64,000 nt of DNA from a virus (taxonomy: Duplodnaviria; Heunggongvirae; Uroviricota; Caudoviricetes), in IMG/VR virus record IMGVR_UViG_3300028048_000105. One strand, given 5' to 3'. Both the position numbers and the translations under genes were made by a program. Below, in pieces: positions 1,995-63,925 of the stretch. The notes beneath the pieces were generated by a model. It was given only the letters and a program-made list of their open reading frames with translations. It had not been told where the DNA came from and did no database searches. Within the stretch, counting starts at the first letter, position 1; the number at the start of each line of letters is the position of its first letter.

Positions 1995-2080
1995 CTATTT
2001 TTAATATTTTTCGCGGAAACTTTTTTTATCTCATATTGAAAATGTGAACTAAAGAAAACGCATCGAAAGGAGAAAAATTT

Positions 2081-2386
2081 ATGGATACAGAAACAAACAA
2101 AAAAATAGAAGAGCTTAAAAAAGCCTTCTATGAAGCATATAATGAGTACCAAAATCTGGAGGAACATCCCGAACTCATACAGGACATCCGGGCACTGTAT
2201 GCATTAAAACGCAAGCTGACGGTATACAGCGTTCTGGCTGACCGCTTTGGACAGGGATTATTTACCATTCGTGTCCAGAATTCAACCTACAAATGTATCA
2301 AGTATTTCCTTGATACCGAAAAAAGCAAGGTAGACTCCTTCAAAACAATGATGGAACTCTTTCTTGAGGAAGAACAGGCGTGCTAA
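2081..2386 (+). CDS. hypothetical small protein (module B upstream)
   Basis: ORF preceded by CATATTGAAAATGTGAAC..ATCGAAAGGAGA module. Confidence 0.5.
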   Translation: MDTETNKKIEELKKAFYEAYNEYQNLEEHPELIQDIRALYALKRKLTVYSVLADRFGQGLFTIRVQNSTYKCIKYFLDTEKSKVDSFKTMMELFLEEEQAC

Positions 2387-2490
2387 CAGCCTGCTCTTTT
2401 TTTTATGCAAATTTCCTCTCTCAAAACAGGAATACATATTAATGATGTAACTGGCATACAAACCCATCAGGACCATCAGGAGGAAGAAAT

Positions 2491-3457
2491 TATGTTTTTT
2501 GGAATTGGAAATAAAAAGAAAAAGCAGGTACAGACCGGCGTGGGAAATCCGCTACCTTTCTCCACGTCTGCCGCACCGGATCGGAAATCAGTAATAAATG
2601 TATCAAACCTGCAGACGAGCATCCAAATTGATGAGACATTATTGGAATCTGCTCTGCAAAAACTTGACAAAATGACAGGGCTTTCATCCATCAAGCAGGA
2701 TGTGCGCAATCTTGTCCAGCTGCAGAAACTTAATATTGAACGGGAAAACCGTGGAATGAAAACAGCACAGATCTCAAACCATCTCATTTTCCTTGGAAAT
2801 CCCGGCACTGGAAAAACAACCGTTGCCCGGATTATTGCTGATATCTACAAAGCCTTAAATGTGGTCGAGCACGGGCAGTTGATCGAGACTGACCGTTCGG
2901 GACTTATCGGGCAGTATCAGGGACAGACTGAGCAGAAAACAAAACAGATCTTAAGTGAAGCTGACGGAGGAATCCTGTTTATTGATGAAGCATATTCCCT
3001 CGCGTCCGGAGAAAATGATTACGGACAGCGGGCAATCGAAATTATCCTGAAAGAGATGGAAGATAACAGGAATAACCTTGTTGTAATTGTGGCCGGATAC
3101 CCAAATGAGATGCAGCGTTTCTTAAACTCCAACCCCGGGCTTTCCTCCCGTTTCGGGAAAACCCTGCAGTTTGAAAATTACTCACCGGATGAAATGTATG
3201 TGATCTCGCAGTCCTACGCCATGGAAAGCGGCTACATTCTCGATAATAGCTGTTTCGATGTCCTTAACAATTATTATGCATCAGAATGTAAGAAGCCGGA
3301 TTTCGCCAACGGAAGACTTGCCAGAAAGACTGTGGAATCCTGCATTAAGGCGCAGGCAGTAAGACTCACCGGAAAAAGTCCCCTAATTGCATTTTCCGAC
3401 AGAGACTTAAACACCATTGAAAAAACTGACTGCCAGAAAGCTATCCAGATGTTGTAA
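2491..3457 (+). CDS. AAA+ ATPase, CbbX/SpoVK-like
   Basis: Walker A GNPGTGKTT, Walker B LFIDEAYSL; AGGAGG RBS before the ATG at 2491 (ORF-track start 2405 is probably too early). Confidence 0.75.
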
Positions 3458-3509
3458 TTTCCAATAGGATTATCACAAAGAAAAAGCTGCGCAAAATCGC
3501 GCAGCTTTC

Positions 3510-5186
3510 TTATTCAGCAGCCTCCACATACTCCGCATTAATCTGCAGGGATGTTTTGCCTTTATACGTATTTGTTGACAGTCTGCCTACAACATTCAGT
3601 TTTTTCGGTTTTCCCATCTCCTTGTACTTTTCAGAAGCATTAAACCACAGAACATCAATTCCCTCACAAAAGAGTTTCAGATGCTGTTTTTCAGAACCCA
3701 TCTCTCGGAATAAATCACCAAATTTGTTTTCCTTGAGTTCCAACCCTTTCAGGCAGACAACCGGTTCTTCGTTTCCAACCCCGTATGGACCATATTTCCG
3801 GACATCTTTGTAAAGCGCATATAAGGTATGCACATTTCCATCAATATCATAAAATACGACGTCATCTCCAGGCTCTTCCACTTTTTCAATCAGATCACAC
3901 ATCATTTGCCGGAGCGTATCGATGTTTTCAATCTGGATGGAAGCTCCGCACGCAGCCGGGTGCCCTCCGTACTGGAAGAACAATCCGCTGCATTTATCCA
4001 TTACGGCTTTCAGGTTACACCAGTCACGGCTGCGCCCGCTACCAACGCAAATACCATTTTCCGGAGCACCAAATACAATGCTTGGAACCTTGTATTTCTC
4101 TGTCAGGTTTCCCGCAATAATTCCGCAGATACCTTTCAGAAAACGGTCATCCTGAAGCACCAGTACAGAATTGTTCATCTGTCCGGTTTCCTCGACCATT
4201 TTCTCTGCCAGTTCCGTCAGTTCCTTGCAATACGTTTTCCGCTCATCATTCATCTGTTTAACGATCTGTGCGGCATTTTTCGCTCCGTCAGATTTCCGTC
4301 CGGTATAAGATAACAATGCGGCAACTTTGCGGCTGCCTTCATCCTCCAGACGTCCAAACGCATTGATAGCCGGTACAAGGGAATATGCAATGTCTTCTAC
4401 AGAAAGTGTATCGCTCAGCTTCATTTCTTCAAGAAGAAGAGCAAGCCCGGTGGAAACACGTTTCTGCTCGATTTGTTCCATTCCTCTTCTTACAAGGAAG
4501 CGGTTTTCAGCCTTCATTGTAACACTGTCACCGACGGTTCCGACTGCAGCAAGTGCAATCATGGAAGACATGATACCGTTTAAATCAGCAGGTCTTCTCT
4601 TCTTTGCGAAAACTTCTCGCATGAAACGGTATGCCAGCCCCGCACCGCAGTAATCCTCAAAATCAGCTTCTGTGATGTGAGGATCAATCATAACATCAGC
4701 TTCTGGAAGGAACTGCTCACCATTTAAGATACGGGCTTCATGGTGGTCAAGAATGATCACTTTCATACCCTTTTCTTTTGCGGTATCAACCGCTTCATTT
4801 GCTGCGATGCCGTTATCTACGGTAATCAGCAGTCCGGACGGATCCATGTTCTCAAGATTTTTTACCTTGATTCCATAGCCGTCTGTAAAACGGCGCGGAA
4901 TAATAATGTGCGGCTTAATCCCGATGGAATTGCACCCGATGGAAATAATACTTCCGGATGTGATTCCATCGCAGTCGTAATCACAGTAAACATAGACTGG
5001 ACTGTCAATCATTGACCAGAAGAGATCAACCGCTTTATCCAGCCCTGCTATGTTTAACACGTTTTTGCACTTTCCGGAAACTTCTCTCTCCAGTTCCTGC
5101 GGGGTAACTCCAAGCCGGGATGCGACCAATTCCATAACGGAATTCGTTTTGCTTCTTTTTACAATCCTTTTCTTTTCTGCACTCAT
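3510..5186 (-). CDS. recJ: RecJ-like ssDNA exonuclease (DHH/DHHA1 phosphoesterase)
   Basis: DHH family motifs VYCDYDCDGITSG and ILDHH; 558 aa. Confidence 0.7.
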   Translation of the reverse strand: MSAEKKRIVKRSKTNSVMELVASRLGVTPQELEREVSGKCKNVLNIAGLDKAVDLFWSMIDSPVYVYCDYDCDGITSGSIISIGCNSIGIKPHIIIPRRFTDGYGIKVKNLENMDPSGLLITVDNGIAANEAVDTAKEKGMKVIILDHHEARILNGEQFLPEADVMIDPHITEADFEDYCGAGLAYRFMREVFAKKRRPADLNGIMSSMIALAAVGTVGDSVTMKAENRFLVRRGMEQIEQKRVSTGLALLLEEMKLSDTLSVEDIAYSLVPAINAFGRLEDEGSRKVAALLSYTGRKSDGAKNAAQIVKQMNDERKTYCKELTELAEKMVEETGQMNNSVLVLQDDRFLKGICGIIAGNLTEKYKVPSIVFGAPENGICVGSGRSRDWCNLKAVMDKCSGLFFQYGGHPAACGASIQIENIDTLRQMMCDLIEKVEEPGDDVVFYDIDGNVHTLYALYKDVRKYGPYGVGNEEPVVCLKGLELKENKFGDLFREMGSEKQHLKLFCEGIDVLWFNASEKYKEMGKPKKLNVVGRLSTNTYKGKTSLQINAEYVEAAE

Positions 5187-5303
5187 TTGCTTCTCCTTTC
5201 AAACTGTAGCAATTTGTTTACACAATCAATATGAAATGAGAAAAGAACCACACAAAAAAAAGAGACGCCACATAAGCGGCATCTCTTTGTAAAATTCAAA
5301 ATA

Positions 5304-6947
5304 TTAAAATTCATCCGACAGATCAAAATCCTCGATATCATCCATAACCGGGCTCTCTTCTATATCCGGCTCTTCTTTTACCGGTCTGTTAATGTCATAG
5401 TCTGGATCATCGTTGAACCGGCTGCCGTAATCACCGTTACCATAGTCGACATCCTGCTCGCGGTCCTCAATCGTAATGTCTGCACGACCCTCATCGACCG
5501 CAGGTACTTCCATTTCATACATCTGTGAAGTAAGGGAAACGGAAGAAAGATCCGTGCGGACTTTATCAACAAATCCCTGCATGTTTGAAGAATCCATCTC
5601 GATATTATTGGTTAATGCCGTCACGGTGTTATCGCTGTCATTCGTGATATTCAAAATTCCAACTTCTTCCATCACACGATAACGCCCGGCTTCAATAATC
5701 CCGGCCATATATGAAGAATTTCCATTGTATTCCATCAACGAATCATTTTCCATGTTTCTGATTTCCATATATGGCTTCCGCTTTGAGTCCGGCTCCATAT
5801 GAAGCTTCAAATCCCCGTTTTCAAAAAGATGTTCCATGTAGTCTTTCTGGATCCCGTTCATCTGCTCAATTATAGATAAAGATACATACGGCTTTGCAAG
5901 TTCTCTTAATGAAAATTCCTGTATTCTTCCTTCTGTCGAAGCGGGACAGACATAGAAATGGAATGTATCCTGCAGCTCTTTGACACATTCCGGATTTGCA
6001 AAATTCAGTTCTTTTTCAATCGCCTGATTCTTATATACGATCGCTCCTCCCGTTCTGAGGACAATATAATTTTCCGGATGTGCGGAGTCATAAATCGTAA
6101 TGCCTTTTACTTTTTCGCCGTCCATGATCCGGCTAATCGGTTCGAACGCTTTCATATTGACAGCCTGAACCTGCTCCATCGCTTTGTAAAGCTTTGTTGT
6201 CTTCTGTAAAGCTACAACCCCGACCGCTTCATTGAAGATTTTTTCTTTTTCCGGAGAACCAATATCTTTTTCTGACACAAGGAAAAGGTTCTTGTTCGGG
6301 TCTTCCCTGATCCGGGAAGCAATTCCTTTTTCAGCGAGAATAAGCTGGACCTGTTGCATCTGTGGATAAGAAAGATTTTCCATCTGACGGACAAAGCTAT
6401 CATTCATGAGATCATTTGCCTTGTCTGCATCCATGAATAAGGACTGGCTTTCAAATTTTGCTGCGATATCCATGATCTGTTCCATGTTGTCGCCGGATAC
6501 CATATAGATCGAAGTGTAATCTTGTGCATGAACCGGCATCATGACGAATGGCATATGACCTGCCGCCATTTCCCTTTCAAAATTGAAGCAGTCCCTGTTG
6601 TCCAACTGTACGAATCCGATCGAGTCACCATATTTCTCAACCCAGTATTTATCGGCTTCTTTAATTGCAAGATCTTCCGCTTCTACAACGGACAACCCTG
6701 TCTCCCTCTGAATCTCATCCTGCTTGTCCTGTTTGAACGTTTCCACATCCATGCTCTGTTTCGCCAGTTTGTCCAGCAGGTCTTTATTTGCCATCTCTGC
6801 TTCCTGCAAAAGCATAGATAACTTCTGCACCATTGTTAAATGTCTTAAAAGTGTATCGACTGATCCTGTAACTGTCCCGACAATCACGCTTGCCATTGGA
6901 TCAAGAGTTTTTATTGTGTTGTTCACCACTTTGTTTGCTTCTTCCAT
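5304..6947 (-). CDS. hypothetical protein with acidic C-terminal tail
   Basis: 547 aa ORF; no motif recognised; D/E-rich C-terminus. Confidence 0.5.
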   Translation of the reverse strand: MEEANKVVNNTIKTLDPMASVIVGTVTGSVDTLLRHLTMVQKLSMLLQEAEMANKDLLDKLAKQSMDVETFKQDKQDEIQRETGLSVVEAEDLAIKEADKYWVEKYGDSIGFVQLDNRDCFNFEREMAAGHMPFVMMPVHAQDYTSIYMVSGDNMEQIMDIAAKFESQSLFMDADKANDLMNDSFVRQMENLSYPQMQQVQLILAEKGIASRIREDPNKNLFLVSEKDIGSPEKEKIFNEAVGVVALQKTTKLYKAMEQVQAVNMKAFEPISRIMDGEKVKGITIYDSAHPENYIVLRTGGAIVYKNQAIEKELNFANPECVKELQDTFHFYVCPASTEGRIQEFSLRELAKPYVSLSIIEQMNGIQKDYMEHLFENGDLKLHMEPDSKRKPYMEIRNMENDSLMEYNGNSSYMAGIIEAGRYRVMEEVGILNITNDSDNTVTALTNNIEMDSSNMQGFVDKVRTDLSSVSLTSQMYEMEVPAVDEGRADITIEDREQDVDYGNGDYGSRFNDDPDYDINRPVKEEPDIEESPVMDDIEDFDLSDEF

Positions 6948-7032
6948 CTGTCATTCCTCCTGTAATTTTCTCCGGATATCCGGATAACAACAATATGTAT
7001 TATTATTTCTTCCGCTTGACCAGTCTGCCACA

Positions 7033-8088
7033 TCAGGATCTGTCAAGATCTTCCGTAAAATCAAGTTCCTCCCGTCCTGTTTCCTCAAGATTACTTAAAA
7101 GTGAATGCAATTCTTCACGTATCGATTCCCCGTTTTTCTGCAACTCAATCCCTTTTTCGATGCATTTCCTTTTGTAGTCACGTTCCTTGATTTCCCGTTT
7201 TAATCTTTCATTCTCCTCCTGCATCTGCTTAAGAATTTTTCTCTGTTCATTTTTCTCTCTATAAGCATCATCTCTCTGCTTCACCAGCTCTTCTGGAATT
7301 TTATTCTTTTCCTCATTTACAACCGATCCATCACCGCCATCCATAAAATCATCTTCCGCGGTCCGTCCGTCATCAAGGATTATATTTTTCATATATTCCT
7401 GTCTCTGGTTTACTTCCTTCGTAAGCTTCTCTGCATACCGGGAATTCTTTTTCAGATGTTCCGTACTCTGCCGCCTTGGGGTTTCCCCTGTGTTAAATCT
7501 TACGTGGTACTTTTCGTTGCACAGCTTTTCAACTGCCTGGTTCATTTTCAGGATATTGGTCAGGGAAGAGAAATCCTTGTTGCTTAATTTTCCATTTACC
7601 TCCGGAACAACCTGAATGTGAATGTGAGGTCTGGATACTTTAATCATTCCGTCTTTCGCATCCGTGTAAGGAGCGATCTCATCAAAGTGGCTTGTTGCGC
7701 TGATGATATTCTCATCCCCGAATTTTTCCCGGCACATATCGTAAAAATCTTGAAACAACTCCTTTGCTTTTTCATTTGTCATTCCAAGCGGTACCGGCAT
7801 TTCCAGACTTGTCATTTCAATCCGGTCATCCCTTTTGTTTGTATTTGTTGTTCTATCCAGTTCCGCAAGACGTTTTTCCCATTTTTCCCTTGATTCCTTC
7901 CATGACATTCCTGTGAAGTTTTGGTTTTGATATGACTTTGACGGATCAATCTCGATATTGCTGTGCTGCTTTGTTGGATCAGCTCGGAACGTCTGATCAC
8001 AATGTTTTAAAAGATTTACTCCGCGGATATGATCTTTTTTGCTGCATTTTGCACTTCCGTGATTGCCGCCCCAGTTAACTGAAGACAT
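7033..8088 (-). CDS. mob: MobV-family relaxase (plasmid recombination/mobilization protein, Mob_Pre)
   Basis: SHFDE...RPHIHIQVVP..NGKLS motif like pMV158 MobM HxDE/HxH; coiled-coil C-terminus. Confidence 0.75.
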   Translation of the reverse strand: MSSVNWGGNHGSAKCSKKDHIRGVNLLKHCDQTFRADPTKQHSNIEIDPSKSYQNQNFTGMSWKESREKWEKRLAELDRTTNTNKRDDRIEMTSLEMPVPLGMTNEKAKELFQDFYDMCREKFGDENIISATSHFDEIAPYTDAKDGMIKVSRPHIHIQVVPEVNGKLSNKDFSSLTNILKMNQAVEKLCNEKYHVRFNTGETPRRQSTEHLKKNSRYAEKLTKEVNQRQEYMKNIILDDGRTAEDDFMDGGDGSVVNEEKNKIPEELVKQRDDAYREKNEQRKILKQMQEENERLKREIKERDYKRKCIEKGIELQKNGESIREELHSLLSNLEETGREELDFTEDLDRS

Positions 8089-8179
8089 ATTTTATTCTCC
8101 CTCCTTACCCCTGCAACCACAATATGAAATAAAAAAAAGTTTGCGACAGGACTTTGGCAAAGTATTAGGTGCTATAGGA

Positions 8180-8800
8180 CTTTGCCCCCAGTACTTTCTT
8201 GCTTTCTCGCCTTCTTGCTTTCCTCCCAATCCTCCACCCACACCTCTCATCTGCCATCTGCTCCACGGAACCCTGTTTCCACATCATCCTTCCTTTCTCA
8301 CATCTCACCCCACATTTATCCCCTCTTTTCTTCCACGAAGTCTTTCTTGCGCTCTTGCGTTTTCACGTTTTTACGTTTTAACACTCTTGCACTCTTGTGT
8401 TCACTCTGCCCGCGCTCCGCCCAGTACTTCCTGCACAATAAGTCCGCGCTAACCTCACACTGCACCACAGTCCACTTACCCGCGCTCAGTTATAAAACCA
8501 CCGTACATAAGTCCGCGCCCACACCACTCCACGCATCAAGAAGTTTATGGAACTATCCTCCACTTTCCCCCCTATATTTCCATCTTTTTCCCCACCTCTA
8601 TACATTTTCACACCGTACAGATAAAGTATTCCCTCCACTTTGGCATATTTCTCGCATTCTTGCATTCTCGCGTTCTGCCTGCAATCCACGCCCTCACACC
8701 TCACATCTGCTACCCACACTACAGGTTCCCTGCCCGCATTTTTTTCTTGCATTCTCGCGTTGTTCCCTTGTGCTGTACTCACGCTCTGTACGCCATGCAT
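8180..8800 (+). repeat. Polypyrimidine (C/T-rich) tract with short TCTTGC / CTTGCATTCTCGCGTT repeats
   Basis: Plus strand is almost purine-free over about 600 bp; repeated CTTGCATTCTCGCGTT at about 8655, 8740, 8960, 9365. Confidence 0.6.
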
Positions 8801-8819
8801 CGCGCTACGGAAACATACC

Positions 8820-10085: not shown

Positions 10086-10191
10086 GAAAGGCTGCTCTCC
10101 TGCTGTACTCTTCTGGGGCTTTGGAAAGCTGGTATTGGAAAATTCTGCGTTGTTTTCTTAACAGAAGGGTTTTCTGTACGGAAGCTGGTTT

Positions 10192-10221
10192 CTAACTGAT
10201 CTGCACGCGAAGACGCGGCAG
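10192..10221 (+). repeat. IS200/IS605-type subterminal hairpin (LE), CTAACTGATCTGCACGCGAAGACGCGGCAG
   Basis: Imperfect palindrome CTGCACGCG-AAGA-CGCGGCAG; identical copy at 13284-13312 and inverted copy at 12652-12681. Confidence 0.55.
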
Positions 10222-10338
10222 AGGAAAGCGCCACCTACACCTACACTTCTTTTTATATCCATACATTCATTTCTTAAATATTTATAAATTCCCATTTTTA
10301 TAGTTTATAAACAATAGATTCAGTAGTATAATTCTATT

Positions 10339-10761: not shown

Positions 10762-10764
10762 ACC

Positions 10765-13628: not shown

Positions 13629-13747
13629 TCCGGATAAAATCCATCACACTTACAAAATGAACTTATGGCACAGCTTTGGCTGTGTCTTTTTTTTGTTTCA
13701 TATTGAAGATGTAAACCGATTTTTTAAACATCGAAAGGAGAAAAACC

Positions 13748-14590
13748 ATGAAATACGCAAGATATGATATTATCCTCCAGGAAAAGGAAGTAAACGAGGA
13801 TCTTTTAATCAGAATTGACAACAGCGAGGCATCCGGTGCGATCCCGCTTGAGCTGCCGTCACATGACCGAAAGGAAAAAGTTTCCGGTTACATGAACTTT
13901 CAGGGAGCGAAAGCTCTCGGATACAACCTGTCAAACAAGGAGCTGCTTGACAAGCTGAGTTTTCTCATCTTCAACACCCGCTCCGATTCCAGGTGCAGCT
14001 CGTATGACGAATACGAGCTGGGAGATCTTAAGGTGCTGGTATTCCGCCATATGGATCCAGAGGAAATTCCGGAAGATATGAGGGCAACAGACTCTGTATC
14101 TGAGATTTTCCCGAACTGCATCTGGCACAAGTTCCCAGATGGGTCCGGGTATCTTGATGGACCACGGAAAGGCCAAAAGCTTATCCAAGGTTACGACCTC
14201 TCTACTAACGAATTCAAGTATCGCGGAAACTGGTACTTTTTCGCTGACACTGACTCTGGACACTATATTACCTGCCAGGAGGCGATCAGCCAGATGGAAG
14301 TCCTCTTGTATAAAACACCAGATACTTTCGTCCGGCTTTACATCAACTGGTATGGCTCCTGCAACGAGTATGCACTTGAAGCAGAAGCGGAAACCGGAGA
14401 AAATGCAGGTGCGCTTGCCCTCCAGAAATTCCTCGAAACCGCAAAGGAAGAGGAACTGGTTGGATACATGCTCTATTCAACAGGCGGCCGTCAGGATGAG
14501 ATGTTTGATTTCCTGATGACCGGGCTCCCTGGGGTATCCGGGAAGAAGAAGGAAAATATCAGAAAAATTATGGAGAAAATGTACGCTTAA
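13748..14590 (+). CDS. hypothetical protein (module B upstream)
   Basis: 280 aa ORF; TTTCATATTGAAGATGTAAAC..ATCGAAAGGAGAAAAACC ATG. Confidence 0.55.
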   Translation: MKYARYDIILQEKEVNEDLLIRIDNSEASGAIPLELPSHDRKEKVSGYMNFQGAKALGYNLSNKELLDKLSFLIFNTRSDSRCSSYDEYELGDLKVLVFRHMDPEEIPEDMRATDSVSEIFPNCIWHKFPDGSGYLDGPRKGQKLIQGYDLSTNEFKYRGNWYFFADTDSGHYITCQEAISQMEVLLYKTPDTFVRLYINWYGSCNEYALEAEAETGENAGALALQKFLETAKEEELVGYMLYSTGGRQDEMFDFLMTGLPGVSGKKKENIRKIMEKMYA

Positions 14591-14668
14591 CCGCGGACAC
14601 GCAAAAGAGCTGCAAAAATCTGCAGCTCTTTTTTACTGTCTGTCTTTTCCCACTTTTTTTCTGCAATT

Positions 14669-23309: not shown

Positions 23310-23310
23310 A

Positions 23311-27915: not shown

Positions 27916-27966
27916 AATTTTGAAAGTTTTTGAAAAAATTTTGTTTCATGTTAAATGTGACTTTAG

Positions 27967-28358: not shown

Positions 28359-28465
28359 ATTGAGCCTTTTACGACTTCGTCAAAAAGTTTCCGGAAACCT
28401 TTTAAATATTTTTGTCATTTCATATTAAGAATGTAAACAAAACCATTCACGAAGGGAGAAAAATC

Positions 28466-29086
28466 ATGAAAATACAAAGAAATTTCAAATGCAAGGAATG
28501 TGGCATCTTTACAGCAGCTTACGACACCAGGGACAAAAGACTTCTTAGAATATTCCCATGCAAATGCGGGAAAGTTGAGATCAGCGCAAGAGGTATGAAC
28601 TCTTTTGCTATTTTCAAAGGAGACGATTTCGTTGAAAAGCTTCCGATCGAAGAAATCAAGCCAACCGTGGAATACTATCCGGAAGATTACCTTACGATTC
28701 CAGAGGAAATTTATGACCTGATGGAAAAAGCGGAAGGACTTGGGAACAAAATCAACGATACCAATAAACCTGGCGAATATTATAGCGATATTTCCGAGGA
28801 AGATGCTACATTTGAATTGTCTGGATTGTCGGATAACGGCGAAAGTTTAAAAATCTCCGCTAAAGGGAAATTCTTCGATGCATACAGTTGGCATTCAAAA
28901 AATCCCGAGGAAGTCATCAACCGCTTTAAAGAATCTTTGGAACGGTTCATCATTCTTGAAGAAAAAGTGCTGGCAGATGAGATCAATCTGGACAATGTCC
29001 GCAGCATCTGGGACAACGAAGAGTTTGAGTGGTCCAGTGGAAACAGAACACCACTCGATCTATATGACTACGAATTAACATGTTAA
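28466..29086 (+). CDS. hypothetical protein with N-terminal zinc ribbon
   Basis: CKECG..CKCG; module B upstream (TTTCATATTAAGAATGTAAAC..GAAGGGAGAAAAATC ATG). Confidence 0.55.
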   Translation: MKIQRNFKCKECGIFTAAYDTRDKRLLRIFPCKCGKVEISARGMNSFAIFKGDDFVEKLPIEEIKPTVEYYPEDYLTIPEEIYDLMEKAEGLGNKINDTNKPGEYYSDISEEDATFELSGLSDNGESLKISAKGKFFDAYSWHSKNPEEVINRFKESLERFIILEEKVLADEINLDNVRSIWDNEEFEWSSGNRTPLDLYDYELTC

Positions 29087-43335: not shown

Positions 43336-43449
43336 GCTATTCAATAGCCGAGTAGTTGACTTCTCCTTTTAAATATGTTTTGTTTACACCCTTAATATGC
43401 AATAAAAAAAGAAGAGCCCGAAGACTCTCCTTAATGTTATCTGCAGGTG

Positions 43450-43747: not shown

Positions 43748-44614
43748 TTAATACACCTCCCCGTATCCGACGACTTCCGCCCATGTTGTCTTATGGTTGG
43801 AGCCTTCCTGAGCGTAAAGGATGCCGCCGTCCGGCTTCCGGAAAACTTCTTCGTAGCCGTCCATGGAGGCGCGTTCCGCAGACTGGTAGGTTGCCTCGGC
43901 TGTGACCGCGCCGGCAAGCTGCGGATACTTTGCCAGAATTTCCGGGAGGTCTTCCGTCTTTGCGTATGCGATCTTTCCCCAGTCATCCCCGCTTCCTTCC
44001 GGAAGGAAAATAGCGGTCTCATCTGCATTATCAAGCAGTCCACGATTGTTGTAGTATTCTTTTTTTGCAACAATCGTCTGGTTTTTTGAATCGTGATGGA
44101 GGCTGTCCCAGCCAGGGAAAACATTGGAAAACAGGGCGCTCCGGATAGGAATCTGCTTATTTCTTTCCCATTCTTTTTCAACTCTGTTCCATTCCTTCTT
44201 ACAGTTTTCGATGAAATCTGCCTCAAAAGCCGCATCAGGCGTGACCTCTTCTTTTGTCGTAAGCGGTACAAGGTACGTCTTTGCAACATACTCCTGCAAT
44301 TTACTTCGGAAAGAAGTTTTGCACATAAAATCGCGCTGTCCGATATCCGTGTAACCTGCAATCTGCTGCATTTTTTCGCACACTTTTCTTTCAATATCGT
44401 ACCAACGATTGCTCTTCAAAAACTGGTAATTCCCCGCAAGCACTTCCATCCAGAATTCCTTGCATTTTTCTGCAAAATCGGTAATTTTGGAATCCATCGG
44501 ATTGTACTCAAACCGCTCGTAGTAAAGCGGGCACGAACCGGAATCCGCACAGGTAACAAAAATCTGTCCGGTCGTTCTCTTAAAATTAATACTTCTCACT
44601 TTGTAATAGCTCAT
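43748..44614 (-). CDS. hypothetical protein (module B upstream)
   Basis: start MSYYKVRS after GAAAGGAGATATTACC; 288 aa. Confidence 0.5.
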   Translation of the reverse strand: MSYYKVRSINFKRTTGQIFVTCADSGSCPLYYERFEYNPMDSKITDFAEKCKEFWMEVLAGNYQFLKSNRWYDIERKVCEKMQQIAGYTDIGQRDFMCKTSFRSKLQEYVAKTYLVPLTTKEEVTPDAAFEADFIENCKKEWNRVEKEWERNKQIPIRSALFSNVFPGWDSLHHDSKNQTIVAKKEYYNNRGLLDNADETAIFLPEGSGDDWGKIAYAKTEDLPEILAKYPQLAGAVTAEATYQSAERASMDGYEEVFRKPDGGILYAQEGSNHKTTWAEVVGYGEVY

Positions 44615-44705
44615 GGTAATATCTCCTTTCGATGATGTTTTGTCTACATCAGGAATATGAAACAAAAAAAGAGCCTGCACCGCTGCAAGCCCTTCTTCGT
44701 TGTTG

Positions 44706-46625
44706 TTAAATGAGTTCTTTTGCCTTGAGATCTTCGATCATGTCATGGATTGCTGCATTGATCGCTTTGCGCTCTTCTCCACGCGGCATCGCATAAACAG
44801 GATTAAGGTTTTTATCCATGCCTACACAGCTTTCTGAGTGCCCGGATAAGTAATCGCTCTTGGCGCCCTTGGCTTTCAGCATATCGGTCAGGTAGCATGC
44901 ACCAGCGCGGGCAAACATCTCAACGGTGGATGACCAGTATCCAAACTTGTCTTTGGCAGTGCAGTCATCCATCTTTTTGGATTCCTTGTAGTATTCCGAT
45001 AACATCTGCATGTCATTATAGGAAGCAGTCACAGCCCTTTCGTATCTGTACCAGGTCCAGAACAGATCTTTTCTGGATTCCTTATTGATCACACGCCCAG
45101 TCACTTCTTTTTTGTAGGAAGAAAGTGCCTCGATTGCAGCTGTTGCCGTTCCATCAATGGATATAAGATGCTCCTCTTTATCTGCGAAGATATTCCTTAC
45201 CAGTTCCGCTCTCTTTTTGACCTGCGCATCTGTAAGACCGTCTGCCGGGAAAACAGAATCGATACATTTCTGAAGAAGTTTTTCTGTATTCCCGATTTTC
45301 TTTGCCTTCTCAGCTTCGATCTCTTCTTTTGTCGCCTTGCGGTACTGCATGGTAGAAATCACATTTCGCACGCTCTCCGGGATTTTATCTTTCTCAAATG
45401 ATTCTGTCATCATCTTAGTTAATCCCAGTTTTTTCGCTACAATGTCATCAAGCGCATGAAACATTTCATGACCGAGTGACCCGGCCCCTTTCATCTTCGT
45501 AATATTAATTACCTCACGAAGCGGCTCGTAATGTGCAACTGCGGAACCCTGTCCTCTTGCACCGAAAGCGATCGCAAGACGGCCTCCAAAAGACACAGAA
45601 GATAACGGGATGCCAAGGACATCTGCAAAGTCACAGAATGCTTCATATGCCATGTTCAGGCTTGACTGAGCATCATTTTCCGTCATCCAGTTTCCGAACT
45701 CTCCGCCACGGATATTGAAATCTTTAAGGAAATCTTCTCCTACGATATCCCGTCCATTCCGGACATCAGAAAGGCCAATACGCTCAATTCGTTTAAGCTG
45801 CTTTGGAGTTGCGGAAGCCTTACGCGGTTTCTTTGCTCTAAGCTGCTTTGCGTATTCCTGACACTTACAAAGAGCCTCCTCATAACTTGGAATATTCTTT
45901 TCAATCACGGAATACCCTTTGGAAACGATGTAAGTGTCTTTGATACATCCAACTCGGCTGCGGCTGTAAAAACCATCCGGGGAATATTTTTCAATCTTCC
46001 ATCCGGCAGGTATCTTATCTTCTTTCTTCACAGCAAACTGTTCTTTTTCTGCACAGTATGCGTAGTTAGTAGAGAAAGTCTGATGACCACAGCGGATCGC
46101 ACGCAAAAGCTTTGTCTGGAACAATCCGGTATATTCCGGTTTGGTAGAGATTCTGTACCGTGCGCTACGCTCCGGATCAACAATCTGATTGTAAACAACC
46201 TGCTGTTTCTCCATAAACTCTTCTTCAGAAGAAACACCCGACATGGTATCCCTGATCATGGTCACGAATTTGACGTAACACTCCATCCGGTATTTCACCT
46301 TCTCTGGATCGTCCTGCTCGAAATACGAAACATATGGCTTTGCTGGAATTGCATTGCGCACCTCTTTGATCGCGTAAGCGACTACCTTCGGAACGCCAGC
46401 TTCGACCATCTGCTCATAATCCGGTTTCTTCCAGATATTGTCTTTCTTTACGAATTTTGCTTTCTCAGCATCATTCATATCCAAAAGATCCTCAAGATTG
46501 ATGCCTCCAGCTGACCAGAGTTCCTTTCTCGCGCCTCCGATATGTTCTCCAAAATCTCTGGAAACCTTAAGTGCCGATGTTCCGGATACCTCCGGTGTAT
46601 TGAATAAACTCATCTGTCCTTCCAT
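44706..46625 (-). CDS. large protein with zincin-like HExxH motif (ArdC/ImmA-like metallopeptidase domain?)
   Basis: GSLGHEMFHALDD; 639 aa; module B upstream. Confidence 0.5.
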   Translation of the reverse strand: MEGQMSLFNTPEVSGTSALKVSRDFGEHIGGARKELWSAGGINLEDLLDMNDAEKAKFVKKDNIWKKPDYEQMVEAGVPKVVAYAIKEVRNAIPAKPYVSYFEQDDPEKVKYRMECYVKFVTMIRDTMSGVSSEEEFMEKQQVVYNQIVDPERSARYRISTKPEYTGLFQTKLLRAIRCGHQTFSTNYAYCAEKEQFAVKKEDKIPAGWKIEKYSPDGFYSRSRVGCIKDTYIVSKGYSVIEKNIPSYEEALCKCQEYAKQLRAKKPRKASATPKQLKRIERIGLSDVRNGRDIVGEDFLKDFNIRGGEFGNWMTENDAQSSLNMAYEAFCDFADVLGIPLSSVSFGGRLAIAFGARGQGSAVAHYEPLREVINITKMKGAGSLGHEMFHALDDIVAKKLGLTKMMTESFEKDKIPESVRNVISTMQYRKATKEEIEAEKAKKIGNTEKLLQKCIDSVFPADGLTDAQVKKRAELVRNIFADKEEHLISIDGTATAAIEALSSYKKEVTGRVINKESRKDLFWTWYRYERAVTASYNDMQMLSEYYKESKKMDDCTAKDKFGYWSSTVEMFARAGACYLTDMLKAKGAKSDYLSGHSESCVGMDKNLNPVYAMPRGEERKAINAAIHDMIEDLKAKELI

Positions 46626-47395
46626 AATAAATTATCTCCTTTCAATGATGTATTTGTTTACATCAGAAATATGAGATGAAAAAAAAGCTCCGTCCTGGAA
46701 GATTTGAGGATATGGTAGATGTCCGTGAGGACTACAACGACATCGACGAATACCTCTGATGCAGCCAAGGCATTCAATGTATACAAAAAGCAGTTTCTTT
46801 CCCAGAATTTCTGGGAACGAGAAACTGCTTGCTATTTTTGTGTTAACCAGTTTTGATCAATCAAAGTACATCCTTACACAATTCTTCCTCTTTTTTCAAC
46901 CACCGGGGCATACGCCTTGGATGAATACTGTCCATACGACATGCCTCGCGCACGCGCCTCATGATTAACCTCATTAAGTTTCTCATTCGTCTTTTTCTTT
47001 CTTCTTACCGAAGTATCACTTGTTTTCATATGTTATCCCAATCCTTTGTATATTTTAATGGGGAGAATCTTAAAGACGCTCCCCTCTTTAACCTTAATAT
47101 GGAATACTGGTTTGATATGGAAATATCAGCAGACAGAAACAATAATTGTTCGACTTTTATCTGTACTGACGGACCATACTTCTTTTTCCATGATTCTCAT
47201 TTTTTCTTCCTTCGAAATCTTCTTTTCTCTTAAAAATCCGGCTCTTTTTCTCATTTCATACACCAGTAAAAGCCCTCTTGGAGCATATACATATTCTTCT
47301 TTTTCATCCAAAATTTCAAGATTCGTTCTTCCTCTTTCTGCCAACTTACAAATTTCCGAAACGAGCATGACATTACCTCCCTTCTTATGTGTACC

Positions 47396-50284: not shown

Positions 50285-50287
50285 ATT

Positions 50288-53668: not shown

Positions 53669-53682
53669 TTTTATATCCTCCT

Positions 53683-58983: not shown

Positions 58984-59205
58984 TAGTTACTCCTTTATAT
59001 TAAATGTTATTTTCAACCACTTTTTGAGGAAACACCCCTATTAAAATATATCACACATACACGTACGTTTCAACCACTTTTTGAGGAAACACTACTTATA
59101 TTATGGTAATAAAAATAGCCAGGTAGAACAATGTCTACCTGACTATATGCTTTTGATATTTCAACCACAGAGGGTTATATATTTTGCTTATTCAGATATA
59201 GGTTT

Positions 59206-59652
59206 TCAACCACTTTTTGCGGTTAGCCTTTCTTCCATTGTATCACCTGGAACCATTCCGTATCCAACATCCTTACTGAAAGCTTTGTAATACTGTCCGA
59301 TACATTCACACAGCTTCTCAAAATTTTCAACACGGCATTTCTTCCCATCGTTAGCGAAATCATACTGTAATTCGTTACATTGATTACTTGCATTGACATA
59401 CTCTTCCGCAATCATATACATTTCCTTTAATTTCTTTGAAGCAAACCCGGCTTTGAAGACACCATGGTAAAATACCAGTACAGGTCCTGCAACCAACAGA
59501 ACAATTCCTACAAGATACAAAAATCCAAGCCCAATAACAAGAAACTCATATCCAACTGCCTGAAAATATTCAGCTGCTCCAGCCCCGGTCTTTCCGACAC
59601 TCGTCATCGCCTCCGTCGCATGCTGCAACAAATCAAGATACTTGTTTAACAT
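59206..59652 (-). CDS. membrane protein, hypothetical
   Basis: 148 aa with central hydrophobic helices. Confidence 0.4.
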   Translation of the reverse strand: MLNKYLDLLQHATEAMTSVGKTGAGAAEYFQAVGYEFLVIGLGFLYLVGIVLLVAGPVLVFYHGVFKAGFASKKLKEMYMIAEEYVNASNQCNELQYDFANDGKKCRVENFEKLCECIGQYYKAFSKDVGYGMVPGDTMEERLTAKSG

Positions 59653-60224: not shown

Positions 60225-60402
60225 ACACATATTGCGCCATTTGAAAAATCGTCAAAGGATTTCGGAAACTTTTTAATTTTTTTTCAAAGTTTTTGAGAAA
60301 ATCTTTGGAAAAGAGAAAATATAGGAAAAATTGCCACGAAGGTTGCCATAAAAAAGAGCCCGTCATCAGACGAACCCTTTCATTTCATTTCATTTTATTC
60401 CA

Positions 60403-61899
60403 TTATGCAAATTTCACTATTTTCCCATCCATGTTCAAGGCTTGTAACACATACTTTTTAACAAATTTTCCAATTGCCTGGGTTACACCGTTTCCAATCT
60501 GCTGTTGTTTCGCGTTTAAGGTTGATCCGAAAACTTTGAATTCCTTTGGGAGTCCCATAAGCGCTGCCGCCTCGGATACATTAAGAATACGGTTTTCCTC
60601 TGGATGTGTGAGGTTGATTTTCCTCCAGTTTACCAGGGTAGGCGACGGCTGATCCCATGCAAGGCGTTGGTAAATATCAGAGTGCGTTGCCGGTCCAAAT
60701 TTATGGATTTCCGGAGGAACATCTTTCCAGTTACCTCCCTGCGGAACGTAGCTCATTGTCAACCGGGTGGACTCTCTTGGGAGAGTCACATCGTCCCAGG
60801 TCAACCATGTACTATCCACGTCTTTTAATGCATCCCTTACGGTTTTTACCGTTTGAAATGTTACATCTGGGAGCACAATCTCGCCAATTCTGCTTCCGAT
60901 AACAATCGCTCTTTTCCGGGTTGTGTACCCGCCAACCGATGAATCACACACAACTTTCGTTGTAATCTTATACTCCGGGAGAAAATTAAATACCTTATTG
61001 ATATACATTCCGTGTTCCTTTGTAAGAAGCTGTGGTACATTTTCAATTACAAAGACCTTCGGCTGCTTACACTTGACGATCCGGATGTAATCTTCAATCA
61101 ACAGGCGTTTCTTTTCTGCATCCTCACTTTTCTCATTTCTTCTGTTTGCCGAAGAATACGCCTGGCAGCATGGGCCACCGATAACAACATCGGCGTCTGG
61201 CACGTCTTTTGCATCAACGTTCCTGATATCATCGCACATGATATGATTTCCGATATTATTCCGGTACGTTTCACATGCATCCTTATCGAAATCGATGCCA
61301 TATACAAATCGGAACTGCGGATCTTTAAACGCATAATCTAAAAGACCTGCCCCGGAGAAAAGAGAAACAACATCATATACTTTCTGGATCTCTTTTCTTG
61401 CCTTTCTGGAAACTGTTCCAGAAGAAGCGCTACCCTTACAGTTACTGCCACAAAGATACAAAAAATACGCATCATCGCTTAATGTTGGCTTGCCAAAAAG
61501 TTTCTGCGGATAATTCGATCCCACCGCACAATCCAGAACAATTTCTCCAGTGTATCGTCCAATAACATCCTCAATTTTTACAAGATTACTCCGATGGATG
61601 ATTTCCTTTTCTGAAACCTTCTTGATTGTATGAACAACAATCTTATTTTTGCAGACCTCAACTTCCAGGTAGTCACACGCACAAACGATTTTTCGAACTT
61701 CCTTTGAACGGATATCGAAAAGTGGCTTGTAAGCATTGCCGGATTTCTTTCTGCTCACCGTCATATTTCCGTTTTTGTCCGGAATAATAAGGATTTCCTT
61801 ATTTGCCTTATCGACAATATACCGGTACTTTTCTCCGATACCAAACAGCTTTTCCCTGATTGAGAATGTAAGTCCTCTTTTTAATCTCTTTATTTTCAT
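60403..61899 (-). CDS. dcm: DNA (cytosine-5)-methyltransferase with N-terminal extension
   Basis: Motif I FSGAGLLDYAF, motif IV PCCQAYS, motif VI ENVPQL; module B upstream. Confidence 0.8.
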   Translation of the reverse strand: MKIKRLKRGLTFSIREKLFGIGEKYRYIVDKANKEILIIPDKNGNMTVSRKKSGNAYKPLFDIRSKEVRKIVCACDYLEVEVCKNKIVVHTIKKVSEKEIIHRSNLVKIEDVIGRYTGEIVLDCAVGSNYPQKLFGKPTLSDDAYFLYLCGSNCKGSASSGTVSRKARKEIQKVYDVVSLFSGAGLLDYAFKDPQFRFVYGIDFDKDACETYRNNIGNHIMCDDIRNVDAKDVPDADVVIGGPCCQAYSSANRRNEKSEDAEKKRLLIEDYIRIVKCKQPKVFVIENVPQLLTKEHGMYINKVFNFLPEYKITTKVVCDSSVGGYTTRKRAIVIGSRIGEIVLPDVTFQTVKTVRDALKDVDSTWLTWDDVTLPRESTRLTMSYVPQGGNWKDVPPEIHKFGPATHSDIYQRLAWDQPSPTLVNWRKINLTHPEENRILNVSEAAALMGLPKEFKVFGSTLNAKQQQIGNGVTQAIGKFVKKYVLQALNMDGKIVKFA

Positions 61900-61999
61900 G
61901 ATTTTTCTCCTTTCAATTGATAAAAATGTTTACACAGAAAATATGAGATAAAAAAAAAGAGCCTGCCACAGTCAGACTCTTTTATACATTTGTTTCAGT

Positions 62000-62854
62000 T
62001 TACGATTCCACTTCTCGCATTGTATAAAGCATTGTGAGAAGCCCCGCTTCGCCAATGCTGTCGCTATGGGAAATGATACCTTCAAGCTCGTTTAAAAATG
62101 GATCTCCATCCCCATGATCTTTCTGTGGGCATCTCTTAACCATTTCCGGCATCTTGACCTCAATGATGTCGTGGTCTCCCATGCCATCCACGCTTTTGTC
62201 ATCCCCACGTCCAAGAGCTACTTTTTTGCCATAGGTGATCGCTTCCTCGCGCTGCAAAGCGTTGAAGTAGTTTTGGGCTGAAATATTGTCATTATAAAAA
62301 TATTCAATAAAAAATCCAGTCCCACCATGGTTGTGTCCAAGACCAAATGTATTTATAACATACATCGGTTCTCCACAAGTTTCCCAGATGACACCGTCAC
62401 ATACAATATAAACCTCGGCCCTTTTATTCGCGGAATTCATTTTCTCATTAAAATTGCTTTCCTTAATAATGGATTCTTCTGAATAATCCTCTCCGCCTTT
62501 CCAGTATGGAGCCTGTTCCTGCAGCTTATATTTTAAAGTATCCAATGGCTCAAAGTTTGTGCTAATTGCTGCACCATGCGTAACTCGTACCGGCATATAC
62601 AATTTCCCGTCATATGTTCTGATCTCCTCTGGAAACATCTTGTACTCTCCGTTTCCGTCAAAATCGCTATATGACTTTGCCCCTTCATACACACACTTAT
62701 AGTCGTGTATTATAAAAGCAACCGGAAATTCTTCCTTACTGACTTCGCGAATATCAATATCAACATCTTTGCTGACGGCACACTCTCTTAATTTACGGCA
62801 TCTTTTATTTGGCAGATATTTTTCCTCATACCACAGTTTAATCGTCACTTTCAT
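62000..62854 (-). CDS. hypothetical protein (module B upstream)
   Basis: 284 aa. Confidence 0.5.
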   Translation of the reverse strand: MKVTIKLWYEEKYLPNKRCRKLRECAVSKDVDIDIREVSKEEFPVAFIIHDYKCVYEGAKSYSDFDGNGEYKMFPEEIRTYDGKLYMPVRVTHGAAISTNFEPLDTLKYKLQEQAPYWKGGEDYSEESIIKESNFNEKMNSANKRAEVYIVCDGVIWETCGEPMYVINTFGLGHNHGGTGFFIEYFYNDNISAQNYFNALQREEAITYGKKVALGRGDDKSVDGMGDHDIIEVKMPEMVKRCPQKDHGDGDPFLNELEGIISHSDSIGEAGLLTMLYTMREVES

Positions 62855-62983
62855 AGATTCTTTCTCCTTTCAACTTTGTAAAAATGTTTACATAAGGAAT
62901 ATGAAATGAAATTTCTTCTCATTTCTCACACCCACACACAAAAAAAGCCATGCGAATATGCACAGCTTTTTCTTCTTTTTCAA

Positions 62984-63787
62984 CTATCTGGCAATCAGGA
63001 TTTCCTGCGTCCAGCTTCCATAATTTCCTGCAGAGGCCATATCCAGCGGGAATTCCTCCTGACTGTACATGTACGCACAATTCAAATAACCAGGAGTTAC
63101 ATCTGGGTGAACACCACGAAAAGTTTGATTTGCTCGTTTTGCATCAGTAGCAAGCACCTCTGTCCAGCCACTCTGGAAAGGAAACTGGTTACTGCTTCCG
63201 TATGTGTAAAACCATTTACGATATCTAGCACGCATTAAAGCAGACGTTGTTTCAATGCGCGATACAGGGCTCTCCTCATCCAGTCCAAGTTTTTCCATTA
63301 CCCTTTTCATAATTGTGAAAGGATTGTCTCCACAAACATCCGCATATCCATCCACTGGATTCATTTCATGGTTGAATACAAGGCATTTGAAGGAAGGTTT
63401 CTCCTTATGTGGAACAACAACGTACGGGCACAAAACAAAAGACTTTTCATTAATCGAGAACGCATCCATTACCTGTCCTCCAGACATCTCAAACATATAT
63501 TTTCCGCTGAAAAGAACTTCATAGTCATCCATCGTCATATCCATCGGATGCAGAGTTAATATCTCGCCAGCTTCAAACCGTTTTTGATCCTCCGGCAAAT
63601 GAATCGTACCATATTTTTTGTCTGCATCCATACTGTAAAAGTATTGCACAACCCCAGAATCATCTTTCTCTTTCAAACCAAGAAGCAGTAAATTGGTTTC
63701 AAAGAAAACGGTGTGAACAATATCCTCATAATCGTACTCATCCTTTTTGAACTGTATTGTTCCATCTGCTGATTTCTTTACTTTCAT
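62984..63787 (-). CDS. hypothetical protein (module B upstream)
   Basis: 267 aa. Confidence 0.5.
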   Translation of the reverse strand: MKVKKSADGTIQFKKDEYDYEDIVHTVFFETNLLLLGLKEKDDSGVVQYFYSMDADKKYGTIHLPEDQKRFEAGEILTLHPMDMTMDDYEVLFSGKYMFEMSGGQVMDAFSINEKSFVLCPYVVVPHKEKPSFKCLVFNHEMNPVDGYADVCGDNPFTIMKRVMEKLGLDEESPVSRIETTSALMRARYRKWFYTYGSSNQFPFQSGWTEVLATDAKRANQTFRGVHPDVTPGYLNCAYMYSQEEFPLDMASAGNYGSWTQEILIAR

Positions 63788-63925
63788 CTTATTTTCTCCT
63801 TTCTAATTTACAAAATTACTTACATAAGGAATATGAAATAAAAAAAACACTCACAGGACGAAACTTTTTATTCCATATTAAAGACGTAAACCAAAAAATT
63901 TCATTATCGAAAGGAGATACAAAAT

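Follow-up and report, generated by a model that had tools for sequence, protein, structure and literature searches.

The 64,000-nt stretch of DNA analyzed here (the window), from IMG/VR virus record IMGVR_UViG_3300028048_000105, is part of an 81.5-kb metagenome contig and raises a simple question: what is the function of Module B, a short conserved block that recurs directly in front of many of its genes and on both strands? The answer that we favor, on balance and as judged from the layout of its copies, is that Module B would be a self-contained, portable cassette made up of a transcriptional terminator, a promoter, and a ribosome-binding site (RBS), placed before individual genes of plasmid-like elements of the Lachnospiraceae.

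The first matter to settle is how often, and how regularly, the block occurs. When both strands of the window were scanned with the pattern TTTCATATTN4ATGTAAAC, allowing three or fewer mismatches, 12 full copies were found, compared with 0.43 expected by chance, and none of 100 dinucleotide-preserving shuffles reached 12 matches. A position weight matrix made from the 12 sites scored them at 34–47 bits and the rest of the window at 12 bits or less. Every copy lies between genes in the correct orientation, with a GAAAGGAGA-type Shine-Dalgarno (SD) sequence and then a start codon after it on the same strand; five lie on the plus strand and seven on the minus strand, one divergent pair included. 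The original prediction had placed the block before at least ten start codons in both orientations, and all ten of its copies were located, with motifs on the plus strand at 2029, 13371, 13696, 28418, and 63871, and on the minus strand at 44642-44662, 46656-46676, 61928-61948, 62886-62906, and 63818-63838. It had overlooked a full copy on the minus strand (5216-5236) ahead of a RecJ-like gene, a half copy consisting of a T-tract and TTTCATATT only (8129-8110, minus) ahead of the Mob_Pre relaxase gene, and a degenerate copy on the plus strand (2433-2451). The copies and their partial relatives are as follows:

2020..2083, plus strand: Module B copy with T-tract, TCTCATATTGAAAATGTGAAC (2029-2049), SD, and ATG at 2081; before a 101-amino-acid (aa) open reading frame (ORF), then an AAA ATPase gene; divergent from the upstream gene, lacking a hairpin and retaining the T-tract
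2433..2451, plus strand: degenerate copy (TACATATTAATGATGTAAC) between the 101-aa ORF and the AAA ATPase gene
5184..5245, minus strand: Module B copy, motif 5216-5236; before a RecJ-like DHH/DHHA1 protein (3510-5186), with an upstream hairpin of -18.5 kcal/mol
8086..8138, minus strand: half module before the Mob_Pre relaxase, T-tract-A-TTTCATATT with no box 2, SD 14 nt past CATATT; also present in relatives L018 and L072
13362..13433, plus strand: Module B copy, motif 13371-13391; before an acidic 65-aa ORF; box 2 occurs as a 12-bp tandem duplication (AAAGATGTAAAT twice, 13383-13406)
13687..13750, plus strand: Module B copy, motif 13696-13716, 0 mismatches; before a 280-aa ORF
27944..27961, plus strand: degenerate relative (TTTCATGTTAAATGTGAC), adjoining a solitary type I-C-like CRISPR repeat (27965-27995)
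28409..28468, plus strand: Module B copy, motif 28418-28438, 0 mismatches; before a 206-aa ORF and divergent from a 110-aa gene
43361..43411, minus strand: Module B copy and SD, motif 43382-43402; gene displaced by an IscB element (41614-43361)
44612..44671, minus strand: Module B copy, motif 44642-44662; before a 288-aa ORF
46623..46685, minus strand: Module B copy, motif 46656-46676; before a 639-aa LPD1/HEMFH protein
61897..61957, minus strand: Module B copy, motif 61928-61948; before a C5 cytosine DNA methyltransferase
62852..62915, minus strand: Module B copy, motif 62886-62906, 0 mismatches; before a 284-aa ORF (DUF8359)
63785..63847, minus strand: Module B copy, motif 63818-63838; before a 267-aa ORF and back-to-back with the 63871 copy
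63862..63928, plus strand: Module B copy, motif 63871-63891; before a 167-aa ORF whose start is at 63926 and which extends past the window edge

Three details of the earlier description need adjustment. The spacing from motif to RBS, given as 10-14 nt, actually ranges from 10 to 25 nt. The copy at 43382-43402 had been described as truncated by IscB, whereas its motif and SD are complete and it is the downstream gene that has been displaced by the IscB element; homology to its intact relatives (loci L136, L103, L108, and L096) stops within or just past the SD, the megablast break at 43361 coincides with the edge of the IscB element, and the matching module of all four relatives runs on into an ATG gene. 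Finally, the supposed variant at 27940 does adjoin a solitary CRISPR repeat, as had been said, but is merely a degenerate relative (TTTCATGTTAAATGTGAC) and probably not functional.

The anatomy of the module was drawn from 181 unique SD-bearing copies, those of the window being pooled with those of related loci. The unit is ~60 bp in length and reads (hairpin)-T-tract-R-TYTCATATT-N4/5-RTGTAAAC-N10-19 (A/T-rich)-(ATC)GAAAGGAGAAAA-N6-11-ATG, with TYTCATATT as box 1 and RTGTAAAC as box 2. The T-tract occupies positions -8 to -2 of the consensus and is about 80% T. ATATT (positions 5-9) is invariant in 181 of 181 copies and C4 is kept in 179, values of absolute conservation that are inflated by the use of the motif itself to ascertain the copies, whereas the difference between the two boxes is unaffected. 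Mismatches occur mostly at positions 2, 3, 14, and 19-21, and the two boxes are separated by 4 nt in 145 copies and by 5 nt in 13. In six of the eight copies that are co-directional with the gene upstream, the T-tract is adjoined by a GC-rich hairpin of -10 to -18 kcal/mol with the shape of an intrinsic terminator, while the four copies facing away from their neighbor have no hairpin and keep the T-tract. Because it is kept at divergent copies that lack the hairpin, the T-tract belongs to the module or promoter and not only to a terminator. At the other end of the unit, the block (ATC)GAAAGGAGAAAA is a strong, extended SD sequence, in agreement with the RBS role that had been proposed for it.

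Does the unit also start transcription? The divergent pair at 63838 (minus) and 63871 (plus) takes up the entire 138-bp gap between two start codons, and since the pair fills that gap each module must hold its own promoter; on this layout the block itself must contain a promoter, a point missed in the original prediction. In co-directional copies the motif starts just 1-2 nt after the T-tract, leaving only ~45 nt before the SD. The original prediction did hold that a standard sigma-70 promoter was not involved, and the pooled copies agree: information content from -35 to -30 is at most 0.2 bit, and the TGn of an extended -10 is absent, with -15 to -13 reading T-Y-T and G occurring at -14 in just 2 of the 181. 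Likewise, a promoter scanner found no -35/-10 pair at the Module B copies of the window. Scanner matches that took TAAACA as a -35 with a -10 overlapping the SD were rejected, as their spacing runs from 17 to >30 nt and the SD reading is simpler.

CATATT agrees with TATAAT at four of six positions and keeps both the A at position 2 and the T at position 6. It is the candidate -10 element because it is the only stretch within the ~45-nt space that possesses A2 and T6, and because it is invariant. Two observations bear on box 2. The relaxase half module has its SD 14 nt past CATATT, so a -10 at the position of box 2 would put the start inside the SD; in addition, the looser sequence of box 2 and the variable gap of 4 or 5 nt are more in keeping with a start-site region than with a -10 element. 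When CATATT is set at -12 to -7, T15 and G16 become a pyrimidine (-1) and purine (+1) at the seventh nucleotide past it, or the eighth in the N5 variants, the T-tract lies at about -23 to -17, and a T-R-T falls at -17, -16, and -15.

From these elements, a four-step mode of action can be proposed. First, the GC-rich hairpin and T-tract would stop incoming transcription wherever a same-strand gene lies upstream, the sequence being observed and the function predicted. Second, RNA polymerase would bind a -35-less promoter with invariant CATATT as its putative -10 hexamer, extended upstream by T(-17) R(-16) T(-15) Y T plus the T-tract at about -23 to -17. Third, transcription would begin ~7 nt past CATATT, at the G of the RTG in box 2, to give a short, A-rich, unstructured leader. 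Fourth, the extended SD, (ATC)GAAAGGAGAAAA, located 6-11 nt before the ATG, would drive efficient translation. Box 2 (RTGTAAAC) could then provide the start-site context or a site for a putative regulator, and the reader would most simply be the host's own RNA polymerase, carrying the primary sigma factor or a paralogue of it. As a conserved unit with unrelated genes on its flanks, the module could also act as a patch of homology for the gain, loss, and exchange of gene cassettes. A promoter of somewhat similar build has reportedly been described from Gram-positive bacteria by Voskuil and Chambliss in 1998, namely the extended -10 or "-16 region" type of sigma-A promoter, TRTGnTATAAT. Such promoters are said to be -35-independent, and Module B shares with them the T R T at -17, -16, and -15, the A at -11, and the T at -7; it differs in having a pyrimidine instead of G at -14, C instead of T at -12, and an added T-tract and start-site box.

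Several points weigh against this promoter reading, beyond the inflated conservation values noted above. The -10 element and start site are predicted from sequence logic, and an alternative register is possible for the full modules, in which the T-tract would serve as the -35, followed by a 16-nt spacer and TGTAAA as the -10. Box 2 is conserved far beyond what is normal for start-site context, and the strictly fixed bases that differ from the sigma-A consensus (C at -12, T at -8, and Y for G at -14) argue for some reader other than a plain sigma-A holoenzyme. Moreover, the same element carries canonical promoters, one of them TTGACA-17-TATTAT (29139-29167), which heads an array of ten tRNA genes (29542-30818), and another TTGAAA-17-TGaTATATT before hsdM. 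Known specialized promoter types, namely those for sporulation sigma factors (CATA-type -10), sigma-D, sigma-H, extracytoplasmic function (ECF) sigma factors, sigma-54, and TcdR-type factors, were compared by eye with Module B and rejected, as each would require the wrong spacing or a start inside or after the SD.

It is conceivable, too, that the block works as RNA. The original prediction had suggested a 5'-untranslated region (UTR) RNA element, and variants of that idea would make it a structured leader, the target of a translational repressor, or a leaderless mini-ORF of the start-stop type (AUG-UAA). The last of these has some appeal, as box 2 reads ATG or GTG followed by TAA, TAG and TGA variants keep the stop, position 14 is A, G, or T so that triplet 14-16 is a possible start codon in at least 170 of the 181 copies, and the position relative to the RBS is constant. 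The predicted leaders (G16 to ATG+15), however, fold weakly, at -0.3 to -5.6 kcal/mol with mostly positive z-scores, and a search of the window against Rfam returned tRNAs only, and a structured element was rejected on these grounds. The most conserved parts, CATATT and the T-tract, lie directly past terminators and so are unlikely to be transcribed. The mini-ORF itself was rejected, since its stop-preserving changes are just expected transitions and the stop is broken in nine or ten copies; a comparable ATGTCAG box in the modules of a Butyrivibrio plasmid, pCY360 (discussed below), has no conserved stop codon after it. Taken together, an RNA role for the block appears very improbable.

A regulatory role for box 2 at the level of DNA deserves more consideration. 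Box 2, perhaps with TTTCAT as the dyad TTTCAT-N7-ATGTAAA, could be the operator of a global repressor, one that would keep many strong promoters silent in established cells; a burst of expression would then follow arrival in a new cell (zygotic induction), much as with the Kor regulons or with Reg576/EGeRS2 of pLS20-family plasmids. In favor of this are the overlap of box 2 with the predicted start site, a degree of conservation greater than such a site needs, the tandem duplication of box 2 in the 13371 module, a related ATGTCAG box in the pCY360 modules at another distance from the -10, a gene set that fits an establishment regulon, and published precedent (PMC8708921). The dyad is imperfect, though, with a box spacing of 4 or 5 nt, and the Mob half module does without box 2 altogether. 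Nor was the cognate DNA- or RNA-binding regulator called for by the original prediction found: Pfam and PHROGs scans of the window proteins detected no DNA-binding protein, flank annotations were equally negative, and the only candidates in relatives were a ribbon-helix-helix (RHH) gene in L013 and a helix-turn-helix gene in L014. Neither the 167-aa protein, which is the most widespread neighbor of the module, nor the first genes behind a second class of module (Module A, below) look like DNA-binding proteins. An operator is thus a tentative proposal that we regard as possible and not as likely. Accordingly, the earlier view of a combined regulator site and RBS holds for the RBS, and a regulator site within the block, at box 2, may be possible from the sequence pattern.

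The presence of a Mob relaxase in the window and of anti-restriction-type genes downstream of modules brings to mind the leading-region, single-strand promoters (Frpo/ssi-type) that fire on the incoming strand during transfer, a comparison that the original prediction had recommended. It was rejected. Copies occur on both strands (5 plus, 7–8 minus), back-to-back pairs included, which contradicts a Frpo-type mechanism because only one strand is transferred, and the long, imperfect hairpin that would rebuild a -35 and -10 is missing, only short upstream terminator hairpins being present. This explanation is accordingly an extremely remote prospect.

Which polymerase, then, reads the module? Its -35-less, non-consensus, invariant core raises the question of the responsible holoenzyme, and the invariance of the non-consensus bases hints at a special reader. 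It is conceivable that Module B is read by a dedicated specificity factor of the element or host and makes up the promoter class of that factor, an orthogonal or temporally separate transcription class beside canonical promoters and Module A. The factor could be a divergent or alternative sigma, a paralogue of sigma-A with a preference for C at -12, a sigma appropriator, or an RNA polymerase of non-canonical type. This view draws on the invariant non-consensus bases of the 9-bp, -10-type element, on the missing -35 and the upstream T-tract, and on the scarcity of the motif in genomes (10 stretches among 185,579 species genomes) compared with its abundance on these elements. Promoters composed of a -10 element only are known for specialized sigma factors, including ComX of streptococci, whose com-box has a T-tract upstream, and T4 gp55, with its late promoter TATAAATA. 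The likeness lies in an 8-9 bp extended -10-type element with no -35 and, for the com-box, a T-rich tract ~10 bp upstream; the sequence of Module B differs, however, and a cognate sigma was not detected. Sigma factors are also carried by mobile elements of Clostridia, and their consensus sequences are unknown (PMC7438776).

The coexistence of canonical and Module A promoters on the same element sets Module B apart as a separate class, three promoter types thereby occurring within one element. Module A consists of an A/T-rich tract, TTGACG, N9, and ATGGCGCAATAT, and its ten copies, all on the minus strand, head long operons, including cas5-cas8c-cas7, a helicase operon, and one with a flotillin-like gene. 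A candidate -10 for this module, CAATAT, would require a 15-bp spacer. The copies are located as follows:

1958-1969, minus strand: Module A
21392-21403, minus strand: Module A
25810-25821, minus strand: Module A
27886-27897, minus strand: Module A
28357-28368, minus strand: Module A, variant
33028-33039, minus strand: Module A
38753-38764, minus strand: Module A
41369-41380, minus strand: Module A
48294-48305, minus strand: Module A
60229-60240, minus strand: Module A

Behind three of these copies lies a conserved, hairpin-rich RNA of ~145 nt (27885-27740, 38752-38610, and 41368-41225, all minus), with a consensus fold of -42.7 kcal/mol, a terminator-like hairpin and T-run at its end, and no match in Rfam. 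Variation among its copies is too small to show covariation. A role in processive antitermination is possible, as is that of a leader or a small RNA gene.

The search for a dedicated factor was negative in every set that was covered. Sigma-70-family and polymerase domains, among them Sigma70_r2 and Sigma70_r4, were not found in ~60 window proteins (Pfam, PHROGs) or in precomputed Pfam annotations covering the genes of ~78 kb of the 81.5-kb contig. Nor was a sigma factor, polymerase, or regulator found in sets of 150, 62, and 140 cluster representatives, the last of them drawn from ~1.1 Mb of motif-bearing loci and searched alongside E. coli RpoE as a control, which was recovered, although elements of 140-212 kb were seen in part and divergent factors would escape Pfam. 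The motif, furthermore, serves elements of very different gene content. Because no such domain was found, the host RNA polymerase is the default reader, possibly with a paralogue of the primary sigma factor, and a dedicated specificity factor is doubtful. Rather doubtful, too, is the more specific proposal that Module B represents an undescribed promoter class (T-tract-TRTYT-CATATT plus an RTGTAAAC start box) with a reader unrecognized by current profiles; that reader could be a divergent sigma, a sigma appropriator, or a non-canonical polymerase subunit, and would belong to the 80-210 kb plasmid-like elements of gut and rumen Lachnospiraceae. Were such an orthogonal class real, it would constitute a separate regulon over dozens of swappable anti-defense and DNA-metabolism genes. 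Promoters of the AR9 and phiKZ virion polymerases were considered and rejected, their consensus sequences being different from Module B.

Returning to the terminator-promoter-RBS cassette, its portability can be judged from the company that it keeps. Among the loci sampled, no fewer than 66 unrelated protein clusters stand directly behind a module. When the window was compared with related contigs, 8 of 55 distinct homology breakpoints fell inside modules, which make up 2.1% of the window (binomial P = 2e-5). The LPD1 gene, for example, travels as a unit bounded by modules, and the C5-methyltransferase gene is present or absent as a terminator-Module B-gene cassette, with similar (homologous) terminators at both of its edges and the whole cassette absent in relatives. 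In L014 (10882-11055) and L015 (8027-8200), the match to the window breaks off exactly within the SD of the module corresponding to 62886-62906 (…GTTGAAAG|cttcctgtatac…), and this point is a rearrangement or insertion junction within a module. Separately, three blocks are precisely absent from close relatives: 41614-43361, the IscB element that landed inside a Module B copy; 48713-59229, a type I restriction-modification system with an ISL3 transposase; and 10221-12682, an IS200/605 unit consisting of a Y1 TnpA and a 518-aa transposase-like protein. A second IscB gene is located at 33189-34919.

The genes placed behind the modules offer a view of what the cassette is used for. The original prediction had likened them to an early or anti-defense set and had named a C5-methyltransferase and an HExxH protein among them, and both impressions were upheld. 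The HExxH protein (44706-46625) has a HEMFH motif along with an LPD1 domain, and other members include the RecJ-like protein and acidic ORFans, joined in relatives by NrdD, UvrD, PARP, and a CCA-adding enzyme. Module B most likely marks a large, swappable set of early, anti-defense, and DNA-metabolism genes. By a kind of "guilt by promoter," any module-preceded gene on these elements probably belongs to the same early or establishment program, and the at least 66 protein families, mostly of unknown function and many of them small and acidic, are candidates for roles in anti-defense or host takeover. The coexistence of canonical, Module A, and Module B classes on one element suggests a temporal program. 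From a practical standpoint, the module could supply a compact, portable terminator-promoter-RBS part for a bacterial family that is poor in genetic tools.

No description of the Module B consensus was found in the literature searched, and searches with sequence words gave nothing relevant. Two published systems nevertheless work in a similar manner, although Module B is not a member of either. The first is the PeSL cassette of T4-like phages, a unit of stem-loop, promoter, and SD that lies between genes, acts as a recombination point, and is associated with excised mini-circles (Arbiol et al. 2010, PMC2839356; Comeau et al. 2014, PMC4122927). Like PeSLs, Module B is a conserved intergenic composite of stem-loop terminator, promoter, and SD, its flanks are mostly ORFans or accessory genes that are each given their own transcription signals, and rearrangement or indel junctions occur inside the modules. 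PeSL promoters, in contrast, follow the host sigma-70 consensus (-35, -10, and AT-rich upstream region), whereas Module B has no -35 and a non-consensus CATATT; its host is a Firmicute (Lachnospiraceae); and its carrier is plasmid-like, with a Mob relaxase, iteron-like repeats, and, in relatives, a T4 coupling protein, rather than a T4-like phage. The PeSL idea of regulatory cassettes as recombination points for accessory genes would thereby be extended from T4-like phages of Gram-negative bacteria to Firmicute plasmid-like elements.

The second system is EGeRS2 of the pLS20 family, a regulatory sequence repeated before variable operons and controlled by the Reg576 repressor (Val-Calvo et al. 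2021, PMC8708921). Here too the same sequence stands upstream of several operons (12 copies in the present case) on a transmissible or probably transmissible, plasmid-like carrier of Gram-positive bacteria and provides a handle for defining an establishment regulon, the EGeRS2 operons including ArdC-type anti-restriction genes and the Module B genes a C5-methyltransferase and the LPD1/HExxH protein. EGeRS2, however, has a strong canonical sigma-A promoter flanked by dual heptamer operators (TTATCCCnnTTATCCC), and an RHH repressor gene within its regulon, none of which were found here; the 12-bp duplication at 13371 is the sole direct repeat resembling an operator at any Module B copy. Module B is excluded from both systems because its promoter is off the host consensus, because heptamer operators and a Reg-type repressor were not found, and because carrier and host differ.

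The closest cultured analogue that was found is megaplasmid pCY360 of Butyrivibrio proteoclasticus B316 (NC_014389, 134848-176389; L184), where at least ten genes in 41 kb stand behind a hairpin, TTTTATTTTGCCC, CAT(A/T/G)AT, N14-22, ATGTCAG, N4-9, GAAAGGAGAATAA, and ATG. Its hexamers are CATATT, CATTAT, or CATGAT, and its ATGTCAG box, being 4-9 nt from the SD, must be transcribed, a point in favor of CATATT as the -10 of Module B. The likeness extends to host family, large plasmid size, and the same layout before many single genes, including those for LPD1, PARP, and helicase proteins; the difference is that the ATGT box has another sequence and lies 14-22 nt past the hexamer, compared with 4-5 nt in Module B. 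By analogy, conserved intergenic expression modules may be general in the megaplasmids of Lachnospiraceae.

What kind of element carries Module B was addressed by following the motif plus SD through sequence collections. In 185,579 species genomes, the ten stretches noted above include ~7 full modules in Lachnospiraceae, Eubacteriales, or uncultured-gut contigs, with four copies in isolate MGYG-HGUT-00136 and one in Lachnospira multipara. Gut and rumen metagenomes yielded more than 118 stretches, scattered along contigs of up to 212 kb. From IMG/VR the unit is essentially absent: there was a single match to the motif plus SD, L011, a locus with a variant family of about six copies, while 42 single matches to the bare exact motif had no SD after it. 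The motif-bearing loci encode SSB, RadC, DUF3849, DUF3990, PARP, a T4 coupling protein, NrdD, RecA, a DnaE-type polymerase, PhoH, and NAD-pathway enzymes. Near-identical DNA was not found by megablast in phage and plasmid collections. The contig of the window itself has genes for a Mob_Pre relaxase, ten tRNAs, a Cas3-less type I-C set (cas5-cas8c-cas7), two IscB proteins, an ISL3 element, a type I restriction-modification system, HNH, YopX, and Lar-like proteins, C5 and N6/N4 DNA methyltransferases, and the LPD1 protein with its HEMFH motif. Beside the relaxase gene is an ORF-poor stretch of ~2.2 kb (8100-10340) with 8-bp periodic repeats (8194-8979) and 24-bp iteron-like repeats (9460-9790; at least six units of GGTGATACTAnnTAATAnCAAnAAG), which may be a replication origin or oriT region and would support a plasmid nature. 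The carriers are probably large, transmissible, plasmid-like elements of Lachnospiraceae, and may be phage or plasmid.

The variants of L011 (IMGVR_UViG_3300039324_000189, 1740-10566), a viral contig, read atc-TYTCATATTT-N3-ATGTAAnn-aaaTGAcGA...AGAGAAAAAGGAGA and have no adjacent T-tract, and similar variants (atc/ttc-TTnCATATTT) occur on the Lachnospira multipara scaffold L010. The window also contains two solitary type I-C-like CRISPR repeats, at 27965-27995 and ~14666-14696 (minus), with ends reading GGTTGAAAC and GGATGGAAAT; the first lies directly past the 110-aa gene. The window has cas5, cas8c, and cas7 (22398-25811) and no cas3, cas1, cas2, or CRISPR array. Guided control of Module B by this Cas3-less set was considered and rejected, as the 35 nt past the solitary repeat at 27965-27995 match nothing else in the window. 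Within the tRNA array, the gene at 30463-30546 has an abnormal anticodon loop, for which ARAGORN gives "???" with anticodon "ta." Finally, just past the end of the window, L012 and L014 encode a CCA-adding enzyme and an NAD-dependent ligase.

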